Assembly: GCA_030613025.1 (NCBI GenBank)
Contig: JAUWMT010000007.1
Location: 4,882 to 68,881, forward strand
Source of the DNA: Candidatus Cloacimonadota bacterium
GTDB taxonomy: Bacteria > Cloacimonadota > Cloacimonadia > JGIOTU-2
Direction of reading: 5' to 3'
DNA length: 64,000 bases
How positions within the stretch are numbered: position 1 is the first letter of the stretch; each line of letters begins with the position of its first letter. Of the stretch, positions 31,628 through 40,877 are shown piece after piece. Position numbers and translations under genes: made by a program. Below the pieces are notes generated by a model. The model was not told the DNA's origin, made no database searches, and saw only the letters and a program-made list of their open reading frames with translations.

Positions 31628-32374
31628 TTATTTGGTTACTTTTTCAAGGAAACCTTTAATAAGGTCGATTGGTAATGGGAATACAATAGTTGAGTTCTTT
31701 TCCGCAGCGATATCGTTCAGTGTTTGCAGGTATCTGAGCTGGATTGAAGCTGGATTTTGGGATAGTATTTTTGCTGCTTCTGCGAGCTTCTCGGAAGCTT
31801 GAAGTTCACCTTCCGCATGGATGATCTTGGCACGGCGTTCACGTTCTGCTTCTGCCTGACGAGCCATTGCCCTCTGCATTGTGGAAGGAAGCTCCACATC
31901 TTTGACCTCGACAACGCTCACTTTGATCCCCCAGGGATCCGTTTGTTTATCGATCACTCGCTGGAGTTCCATGCTGATCTTATCTCTTTCGGAAAGGAGT
32001 TCATCGAGTTCTGATTTCCCGAGAATATTTCGCAGTGTGGTTTGAGCGATCTGCGATGTTGCCTGTACATAGTTCTCAATTTTGACCACTGCATCTTCCG
32101 GGTTAACAACTCGGAAGTACACCACAGCATTAACTTTTACAGGCACATTATCACGTGTGATGATATCCTGCGGCGGGACGTCCATGGTTACGGTACGAAG
32201 TTCGACCTTTACCATATTATCAATAAATGGAATGAGCAGAAATATTCCAGGACCCTTTGCACGAAGAAGTCTTCCCAAACGGAAAACGACACCACGTTCA
32301 TATTCGCGAACGACACGTATCGCTTTGAACAATATAATAAGCCCGAGAACAACTATTATTACAATAGTTTGCAT
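31628..32374 (-). CDS. SPFH/band-7 (stomatin/prohibitin-like) membrane protein
   Basis: N-terminal TM followed by SPFH domain and coiled coil. Confidence 0.8.
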
Positions 32375-32561
32375 GTAAACCTCCTGTTTTGAGTTTTAAA
32401 ATGAAATACTTATTTGTAGAATGTGCTGTCAATTTATTTGAGAAAAATTGTGATGTTATGCCGCGAAGAATGTAGATAAAATGGTTATGTTTTACTTTCT
32501 CAACGACTAGTTAGACCAGTATGATATAAAACAAATGTGAATACTGAATTTGTGATGAGCA

Positions 32562-34982
32562 TTACTTCTTCCAATCGTAGGTCAACTTGCCGCACCCGCA
32601 CCTGATTTTGCTTTCCACATTGTCAAAATATTTGATAGAAATAAACTTCCTACACCCGTCGCAGTAAAAGATATGAATGGTCTTTTCAATATCTTCCCAT
32701 ATTGCTGCTAAGTCCTCAATACTTTCTGTAAACTCATTGTCATGAGACGTGACATTACCAATGAACATTGGCATTCCTTTCAGTTTTTGAATGTTGGCCT
32801 TATCCTTTAATCCATTTCCCTTCTTTGAAATTCGACCATGCACAACATCCAATAGTTCAGCAGCCATTCTCTTTTCATTTATTTCATTATATCTAAAAGC
32901 AACTTGGGCCTCTATGTTGTAGGCTATTTCCTTCATTACCTTTTCAGTATAAATCCTTATATAATTACCTAGTCCTTCTTTGTCTTTGGCCTCAAATTTC
33001 TTGAGAATACGTTCCTTGATGTCAGTTATGCCTTCTACAATTCCTACCCCGTTCTCTTTTGACCACTTAAAATCTTGAAGTAGCCAACCTTTACTTTTCA
33101 CATCACTGGCCACTAATTCAAAGAATCCCTGCTCATGTGTAAGTAACAGAATTTGGTAGTTGCTGAACTTATCAGTTAGCAGTTTTGCGAACCTTGATCT
33201 GTGTGGCCTGTCAAAACTTGAAATAACATCGTCAAGGATAAAAAACTCGTTCTGCTTATTGAATGCTTTAACAGAAGCTAAAAAGAAAGATAGGCCAAGA
33301 CAGTTAATGTGACTTTCACTCAAATAGGCGATTGGTGGCGTTTTGGTCTCATCAAAGAAGCTATACTCGATTGTTATTCCGACTAGGTCATCGTTTTTGT
33401 CCTTGATTGGCACTAACTTAATATCCTCAATTTTCTCATTGGGGTTCATAGTAGTGTAATATTCATCAATGTTTGCGGAGAACATTTCAAGAAATACATT
33501 TAAAGCTTCTTCTTGCCTTTTAATAAAATCGGCAAAAAGCAGTTGGAATGTAACTTGTTGTTTTGTTAGTATTTCTTGTTGTCTTTTAATGCTTTGATAT
33601 TGATTGTAAGCGGTGACCGCGTGAAATAGCTTGGTGTATATTTGGAATTTTATATTTGATCTCTTACTTTCTGTGAGCGTCTTTGCCGTGCCTTGTGCTT
33701 GCTTGGCAAGCTCAGATATATCTTTCTTATCAATCTGTATTTTGCTCGGCTCCTGAATTAGGTCTTTAGCTATCAATTCCTTTTTAAGTTCATCAGAAAA
33801 GGCATTCAAGGAGGTTTTAATTTGCTGAACCTTCTCAAGAAGTTTGGCTTGCGTTTCCTCTTTGAAAAGCCTCTCTTTGAGTAACCCATCAATCGTATTG
33901 ATATTGACTCGCAAAATATCTTTTAATTTTTGTCCCTGTTCTCCTAACTTATCCTTCTCTATTTCTAGTTCCTCTAATTCTTTAATCCTTTCATTTAATT
34001 CTATAATCAATTCTATTCTGCTCTTTTCTTGTAGGCAGAGTGGACAGTAATCATCCAGCACAACATCGTTTTTCAAAACACTCTGCCCTTCTTTCAGTAA
34101 AGCGAGAAGTTGTAGTTTTTGAATATTCTCAGGGTCTTTTTGCAGTTCGTTGTAGGTTGTGTGATAAATATTATATCTTGAGTGTATGCTATCAATGTTC
34201 CCGATAATTTCCGTTAAGTTTTCTCCAACCTTCGTATAGAAACTAATTTGCTCTAAAAGAGCTGTTTCTTCTTTGGTTTCAATTGCTTTTAGAACATCTT
34301 GAATATCTTTATGCAGTTTAATATCCTTTTCAATTTGTAATGGTTTTATCAACTGATTTGCTCCCGCAAAAAGTTGGTCATCAGTATAGGCATTTTGTCC
34401 GAGATTTTCGAGAACAACAGCTTGTTGGGCATTTTTCTGATTATCATAGTTGGCTGCTCTGATATTGCGAGCAATTCTTCCAGCTGACTTCTTGAGAAGA
34501 CCGCGGATATCAGTAACAGCAGAAAAGCCAATAATGTTTTGAAGTTTCTCTAGCTTCTCGCCCGGGCGGGCGACAATGAAGCCTACCAGATCTCTGTAGC
34601 GTAGAATTAAATTCTCAGATTGAGAAGCATGCAAATAATCTTTGAAATAATCTGTTGTATTGGATGTAGTTACCTCTAATGAACTGTCAATAGTTTTTGT
34701 TGCATTCAATTTGTTATTGGAATACTGAATGTTAACGAATGCATCTTCATTATTAGGGATAAACAGACTGCGCAATGACCCTCTTCCTTTGGTCACCCCA
34801 GTTTCTTTACTAATCAAATGCTCAACACCATCTGAATAGTACCACTCAACGGCATCAGTCAAAGAGCTTTTCCCCGATCCATTCTCACCAAATATCAGAA
34901 TTGAATTTTTATTTAAGTTTAGTGATAAAGGGATTTTAATGCCCCGTATTCCACTAATTTCGATTGATTTAATCTTTGCCAT
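32562..34982 (-). CDS. Rad50/SMC-like ABC ATPase with CxxC zinc-hook and C-terminal Zn-ribbon extension (RloC-like anticodon-nuclease candidate)
   Basis: Walker A GENGSGKSS; long coiled coil with CPLC near residue 305; signature-like LSESH; Walker B FFILDDV; H-loop LLTHEQ. The ~140-aa C-terminal extension has KRMAAE…H and CDGC…CGCG. Confidence 0.6.
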   Translation of the reverse strand: MAKIKSIEISGIRGIKIPLSLNLNKNSILIFGENGSGKSSLTDAVEWYYSDGVEHLISKETGVTKGRGSLRSLFIPNNEDAFVNIQYSNNKLNATKTIDSSLEVTTSNTTDYFKDYLHASQSENLILRYRDLVGFIVARPGEKLEKLQNIIGFSAVTDIRGLLKKSAGRIARNIRAANYDNQKNAQQAVVLENLGQNAYTDDQLFAGANQLIKPLQIEKDIKLHKDIQDVLKAIETKEETALLEQISFYTKVGENLTEIIGNIDSIHSRYNIYHTTYNELQKDPENIQKLQLLALLKEGQSVLKNDVVLDDYCPLCLQEKSRIELIIELNERIKELEELEIEKDKLGEQGQKLKDILRVNINTIDGLLKERLFKEETQAKLLEKVQQIKTSLNAFSDELKKELIAKDLIQEPSKIQIDKKDISELAKQAQGTAKTLTESKRSNIKFQIYTKLFHAVTAYNQYQSIKRQQEILTKQQVTFQLLFADFIKRQEEALNVFLEMFSANIDEYYTTMNPNEKIEDIKLVPIKDKNDDLVGITIEYSFFDETKTPPIAYLSESHINCLGLSFFLASVKAFNKQNEFFILDDVISSFDRPHRSRFAKLLTDKFSNYQILLLTHEQGFFELVASDVKSKGWLLQDFKWSKENGVGIVEGITDIKERILKKFEAKDKEGLGNYIRIYTEKVMKEIAYNIEAQVAFRYNEINEKRMAAELLDVVHGRISKKGNGLKDKANIQKLKGMPMFIGNVTSHDNEFTESIEDLAAIWEDIEKTIHIFYCDGCRKFISIKYFDNVESKIRCGCGKLTYDWKK

Positions 34983-34983
34983 A

Positions 34984-35178
34984 TTATTCCTCTTTTGTTA
35001 CGAGGTCTTGTTGAAATAGTTGCCCCATTGCATTCTGGATGTTAGTATCAGTTAATTTTCCTTCACGGTATAAGGAAGTAAGTATTTCAACAGTTTTTTT
35101 GTCTGCCCCTTCTATTTTCTTAATCTCAGCGAAGAACTCTTCAATTATTTGTTTTCCACTTTTAATCTTGTTACTCAT
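34984..35178 (-). CDS. 64-aa hypothetical protein, translationally coupled to the ABC ATPase
   Basis: Its stop TAA lies 1 nt before the ATPase ATG. Confidence 0.45.
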   Translation of the reverse strand: MSNKIKSGKQIIEEFFAEIKKIEGADKKTVEILTSLYREGKLTDTNIQNAMGQLFQQDLVTKEE

Positions 35179-35202
35179 GATATAATACTCCTATCATATG
35201 CT

Positions 35203-35673
35203 TTATTCAAAATATGGCCAGTCAATTATAAATTTGGCTTTTAATTTTTTATCTAATATCTCATAACTGGATTTATTGTTGCATATAGGATACACTCCAT
35301 ATTTTTTAACAAAGTCTAGGATGAAATAACTTTCTAGGTCTTCAATCCTGTTATTCCAGAATTTGCGAAGCATTTCGAAGTTAATATAAGTAAAATAAAG
35401 TTGTCCTACCTTGCTGTAGTTGATAAGTCCCCAGTTCTTACTTTTCCCTTCTAGGTGTTCTGCCAGTCGACTACCAATGCTGTTTGTTTTTTTTTCGCTC
35501 ATTCCAATGTAGAGCAATCGAGATTGTTTGAAAGGGTATTGAATTTTTGTCTTATTATTAAATATGAAATATAGTCCCGTTAATCCTATGAGTGGCTTTA
35601 TGTTAAGTATTTCAAATGTCTTTGGACTGTCAAAAAATATTTTTAGCTCTGTTATTTCATTAATCATACTCAT
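35203..35673 (-). CDS. GIY-YIG nuclease-family protein
   Basis: GLYFIF…(11 aa)…LLYIGMS…RLAEHLEG matches GIY-(x9-11)-YIG…R…H. Confidence 0.55.
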   Translation of the reverse strand: MSMINEITELKIFFDSPKTFEILNIKPLIGLTGLYFIFNNKTKIQYPFKQSRLLYIGMSEKKTNSIGSRLAEHLEGKSKNWGLINYSKVGQLYFTYINFEMLRKFWNNRIEDLESYFILDFVKKYGVYPICNNKSSYEILDKKLKAKFIIDWPYFE

Positions 35674-35790
35674 GTATCTCCACTTGTATATTGACCAAGT
35701 TGATTCCTTCGTGTTGATTCTAAAATTATAACGCTATCTAAGCTAGGAGCGAAGGTTTGATTATTACAATTCTATTTCTTGAAATATATT

Positions 35791-36018
35791 TTATATGAGT
35801 TTTGATTCGTAACCTTTTCTAACTTTTGTGTTGATAAAACTATTTAATCCTTTCCCTGCAAAAGCAAGCAATTTCATTTTTTCAATGTTTGTATTACCGG
35901 CACTTCTGTAAGTATAAATATAAACTGCGCCAGTACTGAATTGAACAGTTATTGAGTCATCACCAATCTCGTAGGCTGCGACTCCCGAATTTTTCCCTAA
36001 GTTCTTATAACGTTCCAT
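35791..36018 (-). CDS. KTSC-domain protein
   Basis: 75 aa; ITVQF.TGAVYIYTY…FINTKVRKGY pattern. Confidence 0.45.
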   Translation of the reverse strand: MERYKNLGKNSGVAAYEIGDDSITVQFSTGAVYIYTYRSAGNTNIEKMKLLAFAGKGLNSFINTKVRKGYESKLI

Positions 36019-36616
36019 AATGAATCTCCTTTATGGTTTATGGTTAAATTACTTAAACAAATAACATATGTTTTCTACTAATTATTTATCAATCATTACT
36101 CACACCAGCCATATAATCTATTTAGTCATTAATTGATTATTGGTTCCTAAGGTATTTATGACAAATTTCCCGTGTGCTCCATTTAGATTTTTCATAATTG
36201 CTAACAATATTCCGGCTCTTTAAAATAAATACAAATTTTCATTATTTTTTTCACCTCAGTTTTCATAATCATAACATTTGTTGGCTTTTTTATTAAATCA
36301 AATCGCATACGTCAAGAAAATATTTATATAGGAAATATTATTGGGCTGAGCAGGGAGAAAATGAAAATTTGAAATTCGAAATTGGAAAGTAGATAAATGT
36401 GTGAATATTACCAGTTCATTCTTATTTCAATAGGTCATCCAATTCAAAAGAAAGGGGGGCTGATTTTTCTGTATTTCATAATTATGACGATTTTGTATCA
36501 AAAGTGAAATGACCTGCCAATAAAAAAAACAGGAAAAGCACATTGTGATTAAAGCAAAATTTCCCGGGAGCTTCATTTAGATCTTTCATAATTATTAACA
36601 AATTTTCACCCAAACT

Positions 36617-36818
36617 AATACAAAAAATTTATAAACCTTGCCTATATTTTAAGCATTTTATAAACCTATTCATCATTATACGAGATGAGGTTTTCATGAA
36701 ATATACTGTTTTAGGATCCAGTTCCTGCGTTCCTGATTCGCAGAAAAATTCATCCGGTGGATTGTTAGAGATTAACGGCATTTTGATGCTTGTGGACTGC
36801 GGAACAGGTGCGCTTCAT
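36617..36818. repeat. 202-bp direct repeat copy A: promoter region plus first 41 codons of the MBL-fold gene (~93% identical to 38339-38540)
   Basis: ATG at 36696 opens MKYTVLGSSSCVPDSQKNSSGGLLEINGILMLVDCGTGALH then diverges and stops. Confidence 0.9.
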
Positions 36819-37551
36819 CCAAAAGAATGTACCACTTCCCGCTATTGTCGTAATTTCTAAAATCAACGATCTTTTCTTTATGTTCATCAGAAATTAAGTC
36901 CGAGCGGTAATAAAAAACAGTTATCTCATTTTTAGCAAACGGCAGGGCATTTTCCCGTTTCAAACTCTTAATCTTTTTATACTGGCTCGGCGTTACGCCA
37001 AAAGTCGCCTTGGAAATTTCTGCGGTTAAGATTTCGTAGTCTTTTTGTTCCCGAGCGCCTCGTTCTTTCCATTCGTCGGTCAATTCCTCGCGGATGGCAA
37101 TGCCCCGCATTCGCTTTTCTATCCAATCGTCACTATAACCCTTGAGTTTATAAAGTGTTCTTGTCCGCTTTGTCGCCAATTCCGGATTTTCTATTTCCTG
37201 TACTCGTTCATACCCGACTTTTGCCAGCCAACGCTTAAATGGTTCGACTTTGGGAGAAGGGATAGTTTGAATAATGCGAAAAATTGTCTCTGTATTAGCA
37301 CAATCGGTTTCACGCATTTTTCCGTCTGATGCTTCTAATTTCAACTGTCCGATTTTTTCGGACAGTTCAGAATACCCCTCGTTTATAAGTTTCTTTTTTA
37401 GGTCATTCCAATATTTTCTCGGTCTTTCGGTGCCTGTTAGCACCTCAATAATATCAATAACCGAAAACCACCATTCGTTATCATGGATGGTTTTTCTGAC
37501 TTTTTTGCCCTTAAAAATGGCGATTTTAGTTGTGGTAATTTCTTTTTTCAT
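36772..37551 (-). CDS. Bro-N / DinD-like (DNA-damage-inducible protein D family) protein
   Basis: NEWWFSVIDIIEVLTG…RKYWNDLKKKL resembles the DinD/Bro-N N-terminus. Its last ~15 codons read through repeat copy A on the opposite strand. Confidence 0.5.
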   Translation of the reverse strand: MKKEITTTKIAIFKGKKVRKTIHDNEWWFSVIDIIEVLTGTERPRKYWNDLKKKLINEGYSELSEKIGQLKLEASDGKMRETDCANTETIFRIIQTIPSPKVEPFKRWLAKVGYERVQEIENPELATKRTRTLYKLKGYSDDWIEKRMRGIAIREELTDEWKERGAREQKDYEILTAEISKATFGVTPSQYKKIKSLKRENALPFAKNEITVFYYRSDLISDEHKEKIVDFRNYDNSGKWYILLDEAHLFRSPQASKCR

Positions 37552-37566
37552 AATTTGTCTCCGGGG

Positions 37567-38013
37567 TCAGTCCCACCAGATTAATGGCTTAATAAGTTTA
37601 TAATCCAATTCTTTGGTGTTTATTTTGGTCCCGTCGCTGAATTCCACCTCATCTTTTCGGATAGCTTTTATCCATTTACCGGTCAGGTTTGATAATGTTT
37701 CGGCAATATCAATGCTTGTCCCGAGCGGAGCCGAGGGATCGGGGTAAAGTTTTGCCATATCTACAGTTACCCTATTATTCTCATAATCAATTTCCAATGC
37801 CTTTAGCATTTTCTCGTCTTTCATAAAGACATATTCTTGATACGGAGACCTGCCGGGGACATTAAATAAATCACCATCCTTATATTTGCAGTTTGCCAGT
37901 GCTTCTTCATATTGTTCAAGTTCGTAATATTTGATAAAACCGCCCTCGCCTTCAATTTTTGCGCCAATAAAAATATCCTGAAGCGCTTTGAAAAATTTTT
38001 GTTCTTTAGTCAT
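37567..38013 (-). CDS. Hypothetical 148-aa protein, co-oriented partner of the DinD-like gene
   Basis: 15-nt intergenic gap to the DinD-like gene; no recognisable motif. Confidence 0.4.
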   Translation of the reverse strand: MTKEQKFFKALQDIFIGAKIEGEGGFIKYYELEQYEEALANCKYKDGDLFNVPGRSPYQEYVFMKDEKMLKALEIDYENNRVTVDMAKLYPDPSAPLGTSIDIAETLSNLTGKWIKAIRKDEVEFSDGTKINTKELDYKLIKPLIWWD

Positions 38014-38338
38014 ATTATCCTCTATTAGATAATTTAATAGTTAATTCCATTATAAATATTTTTATTTTCAAAACCATATTAGAATCAGCGCCTTTTTTGT
38101 TTTTCGCAATTGTATCTAACTATTATATAAATTCATTGTTATTATTATCCCAATATTGGCAGATTAAATATGCAAATTTCCATTATTTTTTCACCTCAGT
38201 TTTTCTAATCTTCGCATATGGCTATTTTCTATAAAATCATATATTATCCGTCAATAAATTTTTAAATATATCGAATGGGTAGTTAAGGATTTATAATTTA
38301 TATATTCTGCAAGACATATGCAAACTTCCAACTGATCC

Positions 38339-38540
38339 AATACAAAAAATTTATAAATCTTGCCTATGTTTTACACATTTTATAAAGCTATGCATCAGTA
38401 AGCACGAAGAGGTTTTCATGAAATATACTGTTTTAGGATCCGGCTCCTGCGTTCCTGATCCGCAGAAAAATTCATCAGGTGGATTGTTAGAGATTAACGG
38501 CATTTTGATGCTTGTGGACTGCGGAACAGGTGTGCTTCAT
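38339..38540. repeat. 202-bp direct repeat copy B (native promoter plus start of the MBL-fold gene)
   Basis: Aligned by eye to 36617-36818. Confidence 0.9.
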
Positions 38541-39167
38541 GCAATTCCAAGATCGGGCTATGACTATAAAAATATAGATGTAGTATGCCTGACACACCTT
38601 CATCTCGACCATGTAAATGATTTCGGAGCACTGCTTTTTGCATTGAGTCATGATCCTGAATGCAAGAGAAAAAAAGAACTGCTAATTATTGCATCAAAGG
38701 GATTTTCGCAATTCTATGACAACCTGAAACGATTATATGGTGATACGCTCGAGAACTCTTTTGATGTCGTGGTCAGGGAAATGGGAAATGAAGATTTCGA
38801 TTATGGAGATATAAACATACAGACGCTTCAGACGTTTCATACAGAAAACAGTATTGGATTCCGGTTTACGTATAAAGAGAAAGTGGTATGTATCTCCGGT
38901 GATACGGGTTATAATGATAATATAATCACTTTATGCAAGGATGCTGACCTTGCTGTGCTGGAGTGTTCATTTCCGCAAAAGGTGCATGAGGGAATCCATC
39001 TGAACCCCCTGCTTATTTCGAAGATCTTGGCAAAAGCTGATGTAAAAAAAGTGCTGCTTACCCACCTTTATCCTCATACTGAGGACTATCCCATTATTGA
39101 GTATATTACCCGAGAATACGATGGCGATATTACGATCGCTCAGGTTGGGAAATCTTATACTATATAA
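38418..39167 (+). CDS. MBL-fold metallo-hydrolase (RNase Z/ElaC-like beta-lactamase superfamily)
   Basis: HLHLDHVND is the HxHxDH motif; 249 aa. Confidence 0.75.
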   Translation: MKYTVLGSGSCVPDPQKNSSGGLLEINGILMLVDCGTGVLHAIPRSGYDYKNIDVVCLTHLHLDHVNDFGALLFALSHDPECKRKKELLIIASKGFSQFYDNLKRLYGDTLENSFDVVVREMGNEDFDYGDINIQTLQTFHTENSIGFRFTYKEKVVCISGDTGYNDNIITLCKDADLAVLECSFPQKVHEGIHLNPLLISKILAKADVKKVLLTHLYPHTEDYPIIEYITREYDGDITIAQVGKSYTI

Positions 39168-39377
39168 AACAATTTTCGTTTTTCGTTAATAGCATCAAAA
39201 AAATATGGAGTCGGCGAGTCTGTCGCTGTATTATTGGGAGTCGTTTGGACTTGACTTCATCCGCAAGCTGGCGGAGAGTTCAGAACAAAGAGCGGAAGTT
39301 CGAGTTAAAAATACGTTAGATTCGGGTTTTTCTGCATTCTGAACTCCATCCAACTGCTGATGTATGAAGTCCAGTCT

Positions 39378-39480
39378 GCTACTCCCCCAAATCGGTAAAA
39401 TATATTTGCGGATGGATAGTGGTATCCGTCCCTACAAATTAAATTTCATATGTATAGATATTTCCCTTTCCCCCAATGAC
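39378..39480. repeat. About 100-bp repeat, copy 1, flanking the HEPN/MNT cassette
   Basis: AAGTCCAGTCTGCTA…ATATTTGCGGATGGATAGTGGTATCCGTCCCTACAAATTAAATTTC…AATGACC. It contains a 9-bp-stem hairpin GGATGGATA-GTGG-TATCCGTCC. Confidence 0.75.
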
Positions 39481-39593
39481 CGGATTTTGATGATGTGCCA
39501 AACAGGAATGTTAAGTTACAAGTGAAAATATTGACAGAGGAAAATAAATATTTAATAAATCAACTGAAAATAAATAAAATTTAAAGTGTTAGT

Positions 39594-39995
39594 ATGAAAT
39601 CGAAAGACCTTGATATCGAAAAGATCGTTAATTATTGGATTGGATCGTCAGAGAGTAATTATTCGACGATGCACAATCTGTATAGATCAAAGGATTATGA
39701 TTGGGCGCTTTTTGTTGGGCATCTGGTTTTAGAAAAATTGATGAAAGCGCTGTATGTAAAATTGTTGAAAATGCATCCTCCATATATACATGACCTTTTA
39801 AGATTGGCTGATAAGATGAGTTTGGAAGTAACTCCCGAGCAAGAAGAATGGCTGGACACGATCACAACTTTTAATATTAATGCAAGATATGATAATTATA
39901 AACTCAATTTTACCAAACTATGCACAAAGGAATTTGCAGATATTTGGATGCCAAGGATTGAGAGTGTACGAGAATGGATAAAAAAGCAGCTATAA
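39594..39995 (+). CDS. HEPN-domain protein (toxin-like partner of the MNT)
   Basis: 133-aa helical protein; overlaps the downstream NTase gene by 22 nt; typical HEPN/MNT pair layout. Confidence 0.6.
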   Translation: MKSKDLDIEKIVNYWIGSSESNYSTMHNLYRSKDYDWALFVGHLVLEKLMKALYVKLLKMHPPYIHDLLRLADKMSLEVTPEQEEWLDTITTFNINARYDNYKLNFTKLCTKEFADIWMPRIESVREWIKKQL

Positions 39996-40282
39996 ATATT
40001 ACAAAAAGGTTCATAAGAGAGCTGCCCAAAGACCTGTCAGTAAAAAAAGTTTATCTTTTTGGATCATATATAAAAGGTGTCTACAACGAAGATAGCGATA
40101 TCGATATCGCAGTTGTTTTTGAAGATATCAAAGATTATTTTTCCGTTCAATTACTATTAATGAGAATTAGAAGAAACATTGATCTGCGCATTGAACCGCA
40201 TCCTTTTACCGAACGAGATTTCAATGAAAGTGATTCTCTGGCGCATGAAATTTTACAAACGGGTGTTGAATTCAATGTGTAG
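39974..40282 (+). CDS. Minimal nucleotidyltransferase (MNT) antitoxin-like
   Basis: LFGSYIKGVYNEDSDIDIAVVF is the GS…DxD motif; 102 aa. Confidence 0.75.
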   Translation: MDKKAAINITKRFIRELPKDLSVKKVYLFGSYIKGVYNEDSDIDIAVVFEDIKDYFSVQLLLMRIRRNIDLRIEPHPFTERDFNESDSLAHEILQTGVEFNV

Positions 40283-40304
40283 TCTTGATGGCTCTACATC
40301 AACC

Positions 40305-40410
40305 GGTATAAAGTCCAGCCTGCTAAGTCGGTTACTTAATAAAATTGGTAAACATATTTGCGGACGGATAGTGGTATCCGTCCTTACAAATTAAATTTCT
40401 ATGAAGTATG
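40305..40410. repeat. About 100-bp repeat, copy 2, flanking the HEPN/MNT cassette
   Basis: AAGTCCAGCCTGCTA…ATATTTGCGGACGGATAGTGGTATCCGTCCTTACAAATTAAATTTC…AATGACC. Confidence 0.75.
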
Positions 40411-40487
40411 GGCATTTCTCCGAAATGACCTTTTGTTATGATTCCAAATTTTTCCATCCTTTTAGTTACTTTTAAAAAATAAAAAAA

Positions 40488-40517
40488 GGGACTCTTCACT
40501 TTTCGTGAAGAATCCCT
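40488..40517. terminator. Rho-independent terminator of the STAS/kinase/phosphatase operon
   Basis: GGGACTCTTCAC-TTTT-CGTGAAGAATCCC. On the minus strand it is followed by a T-run (AAAAAATAAAAAAA on plus). Confidence 0.55.
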
Positions 40518-40541
40518 GAAAATCAACAAATATTTTTACGC

Positions 40542-40877
40542 TTATTCTAATTCTTTCAGCGCATTTTCCTTTGTATCAACAATTTTGAAGATAGGTGTAA
40601 ATCCGGATATCTCAAAGATCTCTTTGATGAAATCTTTCATACTGCAGAGAACGATTTTTCCTTTATTGTTGCGTAATTTTTTTGCAGCAAGGAGAAGCAG
40701 TCGCAATCCGGCACTGCTGATATATTCCAGTGCAGAAAAATCAAGAACGATCTTTTTCTCTCCCCCGTCGATCAAAGGGATAAGGATGCTTTCAAGTTCG
40801 CCCGAAGTATTCGCATCAAGACGTCCTATAAGATTGAGAACAGCGACATCTCCATGTTTATCTTGCTTTATTTCCAT
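40542..40877 (-). CDS. STAS-domain anti-sigma-factor antagonist (SpoIIAA/RsbV-like)
   Basis: 111 aa; conserved phospho-Ser region DFSALEYISSAGLR. Confidence 0.8.
   Translation of the reverse strand: MEIKQDKHGDVAVLNLIGRLDANTSGELESILIPLIDGGEKKIVLDFSALEYISSAGLRLLLLAAKKLRNNKGKIVLCSMKDFIKEIFEISGFTPIFKIVDTKENALKELE

Follow-up and report, generated by a model that had tools for sequence, protein, structure and literature searches.

The window is the whole stretch of 64,000 nucleotides analysed here, from a contig of a Candidatus Cloacimonadota bacterium. The locus of interest lies in a slot between a Band7/SPFH gene and a gene for an MBL-fold protein, and the start of the MBL gene occurs twice, as copies A and B:

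31628–32374, minus strand: Band7/SPFH gene, the conserved left flank (Pfam Band_7, 2.7e-41)
32497–36065, minus strand: the cassette now in the slot, four genes (an 806-aa SMC/LmuB-like ATPase and proteins of 64, 156 and 75 aa)
36153–36598: upstream-region allele of copy A (segments X, 36153–36207; Y, 36226–36379; middle, 36380–36529; X', 36530–36601)
36599–36822, plus strand: copy A, truncated (near-upstream region and MBL codons 1–41, ATG at 36696)
36772–37551, minus strand: chimeric ORF of 259 aa (DinD-like residues 1–201, then Res residues 196–242, then 11 residues antisense to the MBL gene)
36819–36948, minus strand: Res fragment (residues 196–242 of the 988 in a type III Res) that stops at helicase motif II (DEAH)
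36949–37551, minus strand: dinD-like (Bro-N/PDC-S13) gene, residues 1–201 only, from homologue alignments and PADLOC
37567–38013, minus strand: mod', 148 aa, Mod residues 1–27 fused in frame to the C-terminal 121 residues
38014–38090: remnant upstream of mod, the edge of the restriction-modification element, by homology to the mod upstream regions of loci L001 and L008
38091–38320: upstream-region allele of copy B (W, 38091–38151; Y', 38165–38268; segment X deleted)
38321–38544, plus strand: copy B (near-upstream region and the first 42 codons of the intact gene)
38418–39167, plus strand: intact MBL-fold gene (RNase Z/Apyc1-like), 249 aa (Pfam Lactamase_B_2, 3.5e-16)

The direct repeat formed by copies A and B was recovered by blastn as an ungapped match of 224 nt with 89% identity at a spacing of 1722 nt (E = 3.5e-80). 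A preliminary description of this DNA had reported a 202-bp duplication of the upstream region and 41 codons of the MBL gene, and the blastn result confirms it with a repeat of 224 nt. The description had also assigned copy B to the intact gene, and copy B does continue into the 249-aa gene; copy A, as had been stated, keeps the ATG and diverges after ...GTGALH. The intact MBL protein matches the NCBIfam cyclic-nucleotide phosphodiesterase family at 1.9e-35, under the curated cut-off, and its gene is the conserved right flank of the slot, syntenic in all relatives examined.

The identity between the two copies forms a gradient, with 96% over the 123 coding nucleotides (118/123), 80% over the next 97 nt and no identity further upstream. 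The 3' 63 nt of the copies are identical except for one junction-proximal base and have common states found in none of the sampled relatives. A second repeat pair (36226–36330 and 38165–38268; 76%, E = 2.5e-12) and an internal pair (36163–36207 and 36557–36601; 87%) are part of the same duplicated upstream region, the duplication being larger than the direct repeat and mosaic. Positions 36298–36818 are collinear with the native MBL upstream region of the relative L021 (4363–4948), and the far-upstream 69 nt of the copy-A allele share 87% identity with L021 and bear no relation to copy B. The copy-B upstream allele is collinear with L009 (9923–9673) and L002 (8657–8884), apart from a gap of about 100 nt. 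A sigma-70 consensus scan of 36000–38600, run together with a terminator scan, found 11 sites against 11.4 expected from shuffled sequence, which neither supports nor contradicts the promoter proposed in the preliminary description; the phylum may use other promoter types. No structured RNA was found by an Rfam scan of 35900–40600 at E ≤ 1.

The 259-aa protein had been taken to be Bro-N-like, and Pfam agrees: residues 18–111 match PF02498 at 2.8e-12, with 47.5 bits against a gathering cut-off of 25.6. The DinD assignment stood only in part. Some homologues are annotated DinD (JGI), but at E ≤ 0.001 NCBIfam returned no family, DinD included, for the window protein or for the intact homologue P0002, and DinD is therefore an annotation label of homologues and not a tested membership. 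In PADLOC, residues 7–202 match PDC-S13 (3e-88) on profile positions 4–200 of 286, short of the full-length profile, of which the intact L008 protein covers positions 1–276. The family is very widespread, and the listed homologues, mostly about 270–290 aa long, are 80–97% identical to the window copy, with 97% amino acid identity to the intact protein in L007. In all of the 120 DinD-like homologues listed, the alignment breaks off near residue 201 (about 75–87% of the query aligned), and the window copy is without the C-terminal ~80 residues of the family. The three helices lost past residue 201 (202–258) include the most confident part of the AlphaFold model of the intact homologue.

Window positions 36808–36960 match L008 positions 4844–4692 at 88% and L005 at 82%, and the encoded residues match the L008 Res protein (ALPFAKNEITVFYYRSDLISD...KWYILLDEAH); NCBIfam returned no family for Res. 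The preliminary description was right that the C-terminus was reshaped at the junction and that the tail runs through copy A, but not about the extent. Since the Bro-N protein is truncated at residue 201 and 47 Res residues are fused to it, the reshaping starts 58 residues before the stop and not within the last 15 codons. The 259-aa product returned no record when looked up as an exact sequence, and the chimeric protein is a singleton.

The 148-aa ORF is not an unknown partner protein, as had been proposed, but what an in-frame deletion has left of a type III Mod methyltransferase. Its residues 24–147 match PADLOC MTase_III (2.4e-24) on profile positions 704–816 of 816, and the alignment with P0137 covers just Mod residues 1–27 and the last 121 residues. 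Positions 37931–38015 are 95% identical to codons 1–28 of the L008 mod gene. The Pfam scan found no domain in this ORF and the NCBIfam search no family; the methyltransferase motifs are all absent, and the FxGxG region present in P0137 is deleted. Homology to the mod upstream regions of L001 and L008 extends to position 38038, and homology to the MBL upstream module starts at 38091. Many short Mod C-terminal ORFs had prompted the idea that the Mod C-terminus and dinD form a self-contained mobile cassette. This idea was rejected because nearly all relatives on contigs with flanks are full-length Mods of 750–950 aa and few have a dinD-like gene.

The three genes are intact in L008, where Mod (881 aa), the Bro-N protein (284 aa) and Res (988 aa) are typed by PADLOC as MTase_III (3.4e-219), PDC-S13 (2.1e-113) and REase_III (2.7e-27), respectively. 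The types MTase_III and REase_III were assigned to the intact relatives, L008 and >50 metagenomic loci. An intact PDC-S13 member lies between mod and res in L008, L036, L065, L066, L092 and L099, whereas the window copy is fused to Res-derived and antisense-derived sequence. The window fragments keep the order and orientation of L008 (mod, dinD-like, res, all on the minus strand), with identities of 95% for mod codons 1–28, 81% for the Mod C-terminus with dinD 1–201 and 88% for res residues 191–242. The window thus shares the mod-then-res gene order of type III restriction-modification systems (Mod + Res, EcoP15I type) and keeps a recognisable Mod N-terminus, the Mod C-terminal domain and the Res helicase residues up to DEAH. 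In contrast to these systems, it retains 148 of about 881 Mod residues and 47 of about 988 Res residues and is without the catalytic methyltransferase motif, the helicase core and the nuclease; it is a relic and not a system.

We consider it very probable that the 1.5 kb between the repeat copies are the relic of a type III restriction-modification operon and not a new system. A functional Mod would have an N6/N4 methyltransferase catalytic domain, and the 148-aa ORF has no Pfam domain; of the complete helicase motifs and nuclease of a Res, motif I (GSGKT, L008 residue 123) and everything past residue 242 are absent. The preliminary description had suggested a mobile cargo with a possible toxin-antitoxin or anti-phage pair, and this suggestion has to be abandoned: the two ORFs are remains of a mod/dinD-like/res operon. 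Neither Pfam nor PADLOC found a toxin-antitoxin domain, and both ORFs are gene fragments. The fragments meet at three junctions:

J1, 36808–36818: microhomology GTGNGCTTCAT; sense MBL codons 37–41 meet antisense Res DEAH codons
J2, 36949–36960: microhomology (A)TTTTCCCGYTT; KREN codons common to the dinD-like gene (198–201) and res (192–195)
J3, 37931–37938: microhomology TTGATAAA; GGFI/N versus SHFI/K, about 733 Mod residues deleted

The position of J1 comes from a three-way alignment in which the window was compared with copy B and with res of L008 and L005. In nucleotide and amino acid alignments, the homologies overlap by 11 nt at J1, 12 nt at J2 and 8 nt at J3, each with at most one mismatch. 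The three joints are, on this alignment evidence, scars of illegitimate recombination, in which the parental homologies overlap by a few nucleotides. J1 and J2 were seen in one contig only and in no other record; J3 and the neighbouring layout were found again in independent samples. The original operon, with mod first, then dinD-like and res, all read from the minus strand, would have adjoined the MBL gene directly upstream and divergently. Three illegitimate-recombination events at microhomologies of 8–12 nt reduced about 6.5 kb to about 1.2 kb. The J3 event removed Mod residues 28–760 in frame, giving the 148-aa ORF. The J2 event joined DinD-like residue 201 to Res residue 196 via the common KREN motif, and at J1 the DEAH codons of Res became linked to MBL codons 37–41 read antisense. 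The methyltransferase and the restriction enzyme are predicted to be dead, and the predicted DinD-like protein is left without its C-terminal helices and with a foreign tail.

The Band7-side synteny with L002, L009, L021 and L023 extends to window positions ~32446–32474. The SMC-like ATPase of the present cassette matches PADLOC LmuB at 4.4e-21, and its module shares 90.6% nucleotide identity over 3.2 kb with L019, where the gene context is unrelated. Defence genes nearby are this SMC/LmuB-like module and a HEPN-MNT pair. In L002 and L003, an 879-aa HSDR_N protein lies between Band7 and MBL without a duplication. The slot of L009–L018 and L025–L027 contains AbiE, three unnamed genes, a catalase, dinD'' and the same mod'. 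The dinD'' gene is frameshifted in the L009 lineage, with 72 codons, and is broken also in L027. Since mod' is kept but dinD'' is broken in this sister lineage, the two-ORF "pair" is not conserved. A catalase directly adjoins MBL in L021, and in L104, from a second sample, a near-upstream allele of the copy-A type lies beside mod'.

Flank duplications were also found in these relatives. In L009, a 252-nt MBL upstream module is present on both sides of mod'-dinD''-catalase with 92% identity, and duplicated stretches of about 80 nt of the Band7 flank occur in L009 (77 nt, bracketing DUF6088-AbiEii) and L021 (81 nt). None of the sampled relatives has an intact operon beside MBL or the SMC module beside an intact MBL gene, and a genome scan with MBL returned five loci, none with copy A or J1. 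Synteny showed that the arrangement is not fixed in the relatives; a fixed arrangement would have spoken against the preliminary description. The slot between Band7 and MBL appears as a fast-changing defence-gene hotspot, in which the relatives (Candidatus Cloacimonadota) carry other cassettes.

We infer that illegitimate and homologous recombination left copy A behind as a second allele, mosaic in structure, of the upstream region and first 41 codons of MBL. It would be the end of a second slot haplotype, consisting of Band7, the SMC-like module, its own MBL upstream allele and MBL codons 1–41, and this haplotype would have been joined to the relic at J1 by homologous exchange in the conserved flank and one illegitimate joint. 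The route may have been a homology-facilitated, one-sided illegitimate recombination of incoming foreign DNA; alternatively, a tandem duplication at a microhomology may have had its left part replaced later by homologous recombination, or a circle closed at J1 may have integrated. Campbell-type integration of a circle by a single crossover leaves a truncated copy of the promoter and 5' end, followed by the inserted DNA and the intact gene. The window has the same topology, but the circle is hypothetical here and would need closure by the J1 joint. The present data are compatible with all three routes. The near-identical 3' 63 nt are more easily reconciled with a duplication in situ or with gene conversion than with import from a divergent donor. 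A single donor for copy A was rejected: its far-upstream part is L021-like, its near-upstream part L104/L009-like and its coding part copy-B-like. New cassettes would displace and truncate older ones, and partial flank copies would stay as scars; neither a dedicated recombinase nor a selected function of the two ORFs need be invoked.

Similar "sequential displacement" arrays are those of orphan T6SS immunity genes in Vibrio cholerae, in which an incoming cassette displaces an older one (PMC5361080). In these arrays and in displaced Rhs C-terminal tips, as in the window, a conserved flank anchors the exchange and the other joint is illegitimate; the older cassette is truncated and pushed aside, and orphan fragments and partial flank repeats are left. 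The window differs in that the element displaced in the Cloacimonadota Band7/MBL slot is a restriction-modification operon, the joint could be narrowed to 11 nt of microhomology, and the anchor side is either Band7 or MBL.

That the slot is an integrase-free cassette array, in which each insertion duplicates 80–670 nt of flank, is conceivable but rather unlikely. The duplicated flank may be the MBL upstream module with small ORFs or a Band7-proximal segment, and cassettes bracketed by direct repeats may loop out as circles by homologous recombination and re-insert in other strains via flank homology. Copies A and B, the L009 pairs (252 nt and 77 nt) and the L021 pair (81 nt) may be instances of such insertions. 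A variant in which the in-frame mini-Mod is itself a selected product is weaker.

It is unlikely that the relic was retained for a function. In such a case the mini-Mod (the N-terminal 27 and C-terminal 121 residues), with or without the truncated DinD-like protein, might bind or titrate the Res or Mod subunits of type III systems, whether incoming or resident. The window, L104 and >20 contigs of the L009 group all have the same in-frame mod' ORF intact. Between the window and L009 it has 31 synonymous and 14 non-synonymous differences (omega 0.08), on its face purifying selection, and its first 69 nt are 100% identical between the two lineages, compared with ~89% in the flanks. However, the ORF of L027 is frameshifted at the junction, and that of L009 carries D102Y and a C-to-F substitution (residue 42 of the 148-aa ORF) at sites invariant in functional Mods. 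Moreover, the L009 relic differs by a pS of 0.29 from the non-deleted L007 mod and by one of 0.43 from the window, and so is nearer to the former. Since the relics are not monophyletic and the changes on the window branch number 18 synonymous and 3 non-synonymous, the low omega can have been inherited from functional alleles through recombination. For these reasons, namely non-monophyly, the frameshift and the invariant-site substitutions, low omega was rejected as proof of selection on the mini-Mod.

Site-specific integration at the 5' end of the MBL gene, with the copies as attL and attR, a replacement 5' end carried by the element and an integrase lost later, is very unlikely. The direct repeats take in the gene start, like islands inserting into gene ends, their identity of 89% and not 100% is expected if the element brought its own copy, and flank-derived repeats recur at cassette borders of relatives. 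On the other hand, Pfam found no recombinase family in the slot ORFs scanned (806, 64, 156 and 75 aa), and copy A ends in a stretch of 11 nt that overlaps the DEAH codons of res, which is the mark of illegitimate recombination and not of a conserved core site. Repeat extents vary by lineage, with 41 codons in the window and an outer L009 copy that stops ~300 nt upstream of the ATG. An integrase island would have a recombinase gene and identical core repeats, and the repeats here have 89% identity with a gradient.

It is highly improbable that J1, and with it the duplication, arose as a chimera of two strain haplotypes during assembly or amplification, although the window is one metagenome- or single-cell-derived contig and J1 and J2 are in no other record. 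Whole-genome amplification chimeras form at microhomologies too. The 11-nt imperfect overlap, however, is too short for a k-mer assembler to bridge, and copy A is distinct, with its own upstream architecture, and is not re-used copy B. J3 and the neighbouring layout were confirmed in independent samples, and comparable flank duplications occur in independent genomes.

Scarcely credible is the insertion of a small mobile 1.5-kb toxin-antitoxin or anti-phage pair at the MBL gene start, bringing or making the 202-bp duplication: a Bro-N domain is present in a family that is a PADLOC defence candidate (PDC-S13), both ORFs are open and defence genes (the SMC/LmuB-like module and the HEPN-MNT pair) surround the locus, but the partner is Mod(1–27) fused to the C-terminal 121 aa of Mod, the Bro-N protein has lost its C-terminus and gained a Res fragment by fusion, the dinD-like gene sits within a three-gene type III operon in intact loci, the sister lineage has mod' with a frameshifted 72-codon dinD remnant, and copy A ends on the right at a microhomology joint within res, not at a transposon or att end.

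The locus is a clean example of defence-island turnover by ordinary genome decay, resolved to the base pair in an uncultured phylum, Cloacimonadota. Older systems were not cleanly removed; they were trimmed at microhomologies and displaced by incoming cassettes, and partial flank duplications persist. The "Bro-N domain-containing protein" and "hypothetical protein" found here are products of chimeric pseudogenes and do not belong in a tally of defence or toxin-antitoxin modules.

In this widespread type III family, the place between mod and res is a variable slot for accessory genes, and the DinD-like occupant of this slot has a DdrC-like predicted fold. This likeness belongs to the intact DinD-like family and not to the truncated window copy. 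The AlphaFold model of intact P0002 was matched by Foldseek to DdrC, a DNA-break-binding protein of Deinococcus radiodurans, with an E value of 7e-6 and a probability of 1.0. The TM score of the match was 0.4–0.5 (target-length normalised) at 11–12% sequence identity, and the rmsd was high, suggesting a different domain arrangement.

The start of the MBL-fold gene and its upstream region occur twice in the window, as the preliminary description reported, in a direct, ungapped repeat of 224 nt with 89% identity (blastn E 3.5e-80). The weaker repeat pairs 36226-36330/38165-38268 (76%) and 36163-36207/36557-36601 (87%) are part of the same duplicated upstream region. The main features are as follows:

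36599-36822, forward strand: copy A, with an ATG at 36696 and 41 MBL codons, divergent thereafter
36772-37551, reverse strand: 259-aa ORF, between the repeat copies
37567-38013, reverse strand: 148-aa ORF, between the repeat copies
38321-38544, forward strand: copy B, which runs on into the intact 249-aa MBL gene (38418-39167)

The Bro-N similarity of the 259-aa protein was confirmed by a Pfam match (PF02498, 2.8e-12, residues 18-111). The match to the PADLOC candidate PDC-S13 (3e-88) covers profile positions 4-200 of 286 only and is not full length. A search returned 8000 homologues, and the 120 listed span many phyla, are mostly about 270-290 aa long and 73-97% identical, and cover about 75-87% of the query. 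The homology ends exactly past ...KSLKREN at residue 201, and the last 58 residues are foreign to the family; the suspected alteration of the C-terminus at a junction is therefore real. In the AlphaFold model of an intact family member (mean pLDDT 80.6), the Bro-N domain is followed by helices at 123-258, and a cut at residue 201 takes away the last three (202-258), including the most confident part of the model.

The 148-aa ORF contains no Pfam domain, but over residues 24-147 it matches the final 113 positions of the type III methyltransferase profile of PADLOC (2.4e-24) and also aligns to the C-terminus of P0137, a longer N6_N4_Mtase protein of the same 90% cluster. An intact operon was found on the contig of a homologue, L008, encoding Mod (881 aa), a Bro-N protein (284 aa) and Res (988 aa), typed by PADLOC as MTase_III (3.4e-219), full-length PDC-S13 (2.1e-113) and REase_III (2.7e-27). 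In a blastn comparison, the window matched this operon in three pieces:

37931-38015 (L008 703-619, 95%): mod codons 1-28
36949-37938 (L008 3855-2919, 81%): Mod C-terminus and DinD-like residues 1-201
36808-36960 (L008 4844-4692, 88%): Res residues ~191-242

At each of the three junctions, the homologies to the two parental sequences overlap by a few nucleotides in the alignments:

J3, 37931-37938, TTGATAAA: ...GEGGFI/NLMRIK joined to ...SHFI/KYYELEQ, an in-frame deletion of ~733 Mod residues
J2, 36949-36960, TTTTCCCGYTT: DinD-like ...SLKREN joined to Res ...VKREN/ALPFAKNE, at a KREN motif common to both proteins
J1, 36808-36818, GTGNGCTTCAT: Res ...KWYILLDEAH, whose DEAH is helicase motif II (residues 239-242), joined to the antisense strand of MBL codons 37-41

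These alignments show that the 148-aa ORF, formerly listed as an unknown partner, is an in-frame fusion of Mod residues 1-27 to the last 121 residues of Mod (mini-Mod, gene mod'), and that the 259-aa ORF is a chimera of DinD-like residues 1-201, Res residues 196-242 and 11 antisense residues. About 1.2 kb is left of the ~6.5-kb operon, with no methyltransferase, helicase-core or nuclease motif, and both the catalytic Mod and the complete Res that define type III systems are missing. The genes here are remnants of a type III restriction-modification operon in which a Bro-N/PDC-S13 accessory gene was embedded, and the locus belongs to no working system. Since the ORFs are operon fragments and the DinD-like protein is cut at residue 201, the proposed toxin-antitoxin or two-gene defence pair is unsupported; no toxin-antitoxin hallmarks were found at the locus. 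J1 and J2 were found in no record beyond this contig, either among the 120 listed homologues or by exact lookup of the 259-aa product. An assembly artefact is unlikely, as the J1 overlap of 11 nt is imperfect and copy A is a distinct sequence.

The AlphaFold model of P0002, the intact homologue of 36949-37551, matches DdrC, a DNA-break-binding protein of Deinococcus radiodurans (Foldseek E 7e-6, probability 1.0, 11-12% identity). This fold match concerns the intact DinD-like/PDC-S13 protein and hints that the accessory gene may encode a DNA-lesion binder.

The coding parts of the two copies are identical at 118 of 123 positions (96%), have derived states in common and are each at most 90% identical to any sampled relative. 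Identity falls to 80% in the next 97 nt upstream and is absent farther upstream, which rules out copy A as a simple recent duplicate of copy B. In this farther stretch, copy A corresponds to the native upstream region of MBL in a relative, L021 (87% identity), and window 36298-36818 is collinear with L021 4363-4948. In a second sample, L104 has the window-type copy-B-side architecture adjoining mod', but its near-upstream allele is closer to copy A (92%) than to copy B. On its left side, the locus therefore has the look of a second, complete haplotype (Band7, the SMC module, an upstream allele of its own and MBL codons 1-41) that was joined to the relic at J1, the alleles being mosaic in the population.

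The members of the MBL protein cluster are annotated Candidatus Cloacimonadota. The relatives share their flanks (left, MetRS, His_Phos, DeoC and Band7; right, MBL, HEPN, NTase, STAS and further genes) and differ in the slot between Band7 and MBL:

L002, L003: one 879-aa HSDR_N protein; upstream region single
L021: 261-aa and 306-aa ORFs, then catalase adjoining MBL
L009-L018, L025-L027: AbiEii, DUF6088, three unnamed genes, catalase, a dinD remnant (72 codons, frameshifted past codon 55) and mod' with the same J3
Window: four-gene SMC/LmuB-like module (32497-36065, reverse strand), then the relic

The arrangement seen in the window is thus not fixed in its relatives. The SMC module is 90.6% identical in nucleotides to that of L019, which has an unrelated gene context. 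Together with the differing slot contents, this indicates that the slot is a hotspot with rapid cassette turnover. It encodes 75-aa, 156-aa (weak GIY-YIG) and 64-aa proteins together with the SMC/LmuB-like ATPase of 806 aa; the module thus resembles a Lamassu-like candidate for defence that has moved recently and whose set of small genes is unusual.

The locus combines three illegitimate joints at microhomology, conserved flanks, variable slot content and mosaic repeat copies. J1 would have arisen from homologous exchange in the conserved flank plus one illegitimate joint. On a rough weighting, homology-facilitated illegitimate recombination of incoming DNA has a little under an even chance of being the route; the same process has been put forward to explain the orphan-gene arrays of T6SS and Rhs loci (PMC5361080). 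Rather unlikely is a tandem duplication, mediated by microhomology, that would have run from the DEAH codons of res to MBL codon 41; the SMC haplotype would then have replaced the left copy homologously, the right crossover falling close to where the coding region starts. Very unlikely, by the same rough weighting, is a circle closed at J1 whose integration would have taken one crossover in the upstream/5' region. All three routes yield the same product. That the copies are nearly identical over their 3' 63 nt speaks for tandem duplication, a conspecific donor or later gene conversion, whereas the flank duplications that recur in relatives speak for incoming DNA or the circle. In L009, 252 nt of the MBL upstream module lie on either side of mod', the dinD remnant and catalase (92%), and ~80 nt of the Band7-proximal flank form direct repeats around the DUF6088-AbiEii pair (15843-15919/17788-17863); the latter repeats also occur in L021 (455-535/722-802), with only 267 nt between them. 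No recombinase families were found among the scanned slot ORFs (Pfam, PADLOC), and the junction alignment showed no att-like core at the end of copy A. It is quite unlikely that the slot works as a cassette array that lacks an integrase and is mobilised via its duplicated flanks. The process resembles published scenarios of sequential displacement and homology-facilitated illegitimate recombination, and the locus adds a new, well-resolved case to a known class of events.

An intact mini-Mod ORF is present in the window, L104 and the L009 group, and between the window and L009 this ORF differs by 31 synonymous and 14 non-synonymous changes (omega 0.08; neighbouring MBL gene, 0.12), which would suggest selection for a retained function. 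However, it is frameshifted at the junction in L027, L009 carries D102Y and a C-to-F change at ORF residue 42, both at sites invariant in functional Mods, and the relics are not monophyletic, L009 being nearer the non-deleted L007 allele (pS 0.29) than the window (pS 0.43). Retained function is consequently most improbable. Among the changes unique to the window branch, 18 are synonymous and 3 non-synonymous. Most simply, the divergence would have built up in functional mod alleles that recombination then brought in, or the same microhomology would have produced the deletion more than once. The first ~70-85 nt of mod (window 37945-38013; L008 621-703) are 100% identical between the window and L009 and 94-95% identical to the distant L008, compared with ~80-89% elsewhere, and may be a regulatory or recombination segment.

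The conserved MBL upstream module (window 36153-36379 and 38091-38268; L009 9673-9924 and 12342-12593; L002 8657-8884) recurs at cassette borders in relatives. As read from the sequence, its minus strand carries a Shine-Dalgarno-like CTGAGGTGA, a 13-aa ORF (MEICMYLNELEYC/MKICIYFKEPEYC) and a 31-33-aa ORF (MKNLNGVPVKFAYNHNVLILIIRNDNNNEFI); in the MBL-adjoining module of the window, the small ORF is destroyed by a ~100-nt deletion. The best NCBIfam match of the conserved MBL gene (38418-39167, forward strand) is full length and below the cut-off ('cyclic nucleotide-degrading phosphodiesterase', NF041851, 1.9e-35), and the Pfam match to Anti-Pycsar Apyc1 is weak; its product is predicted to be a chromosomal Apyc1-like enzyme at the edge of a defence hotspot. 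Direct repeats of 50 nt (39398-39447 and 40350-40399, 94%), forming strong hairpins (-14.8 and -16.6 kcal/mol, z -3.3 and -4.6), bracket a HEPN (39594-39995) and nucleotidyltransferase (39974-40282) pair. Relatives retain these repeats and differ in the pair, L002 having a 60-aa HEPN fragment.

Across the widespread type III family (L008, L005 and L028-L103, which are relatives of the window's mod'), the Mod stop and the Res start lie between ~5 nt and ~3.9 kb apart, in size classes of ~5-25, ~145, ~440-515, ~600, ~760-1100, ~1180-1655 and 2269-3861 nt, indicating that the mod-res junction is a variable accessory-gene slot. Only a minority of loci carry a dinD-like gene there (L008, L036, L065, L066, L092, L099, L007 and L001). 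An independent relic of the same operon type adjoins dnaX in an unrelated genome (L001 5956-7503) and comprises a 191-aa Mod fragment, an intact 285-aa DinD-like gene and a 38-aa Res stub; in this relic the accessory gene survived longer than the restriction-modification genes.
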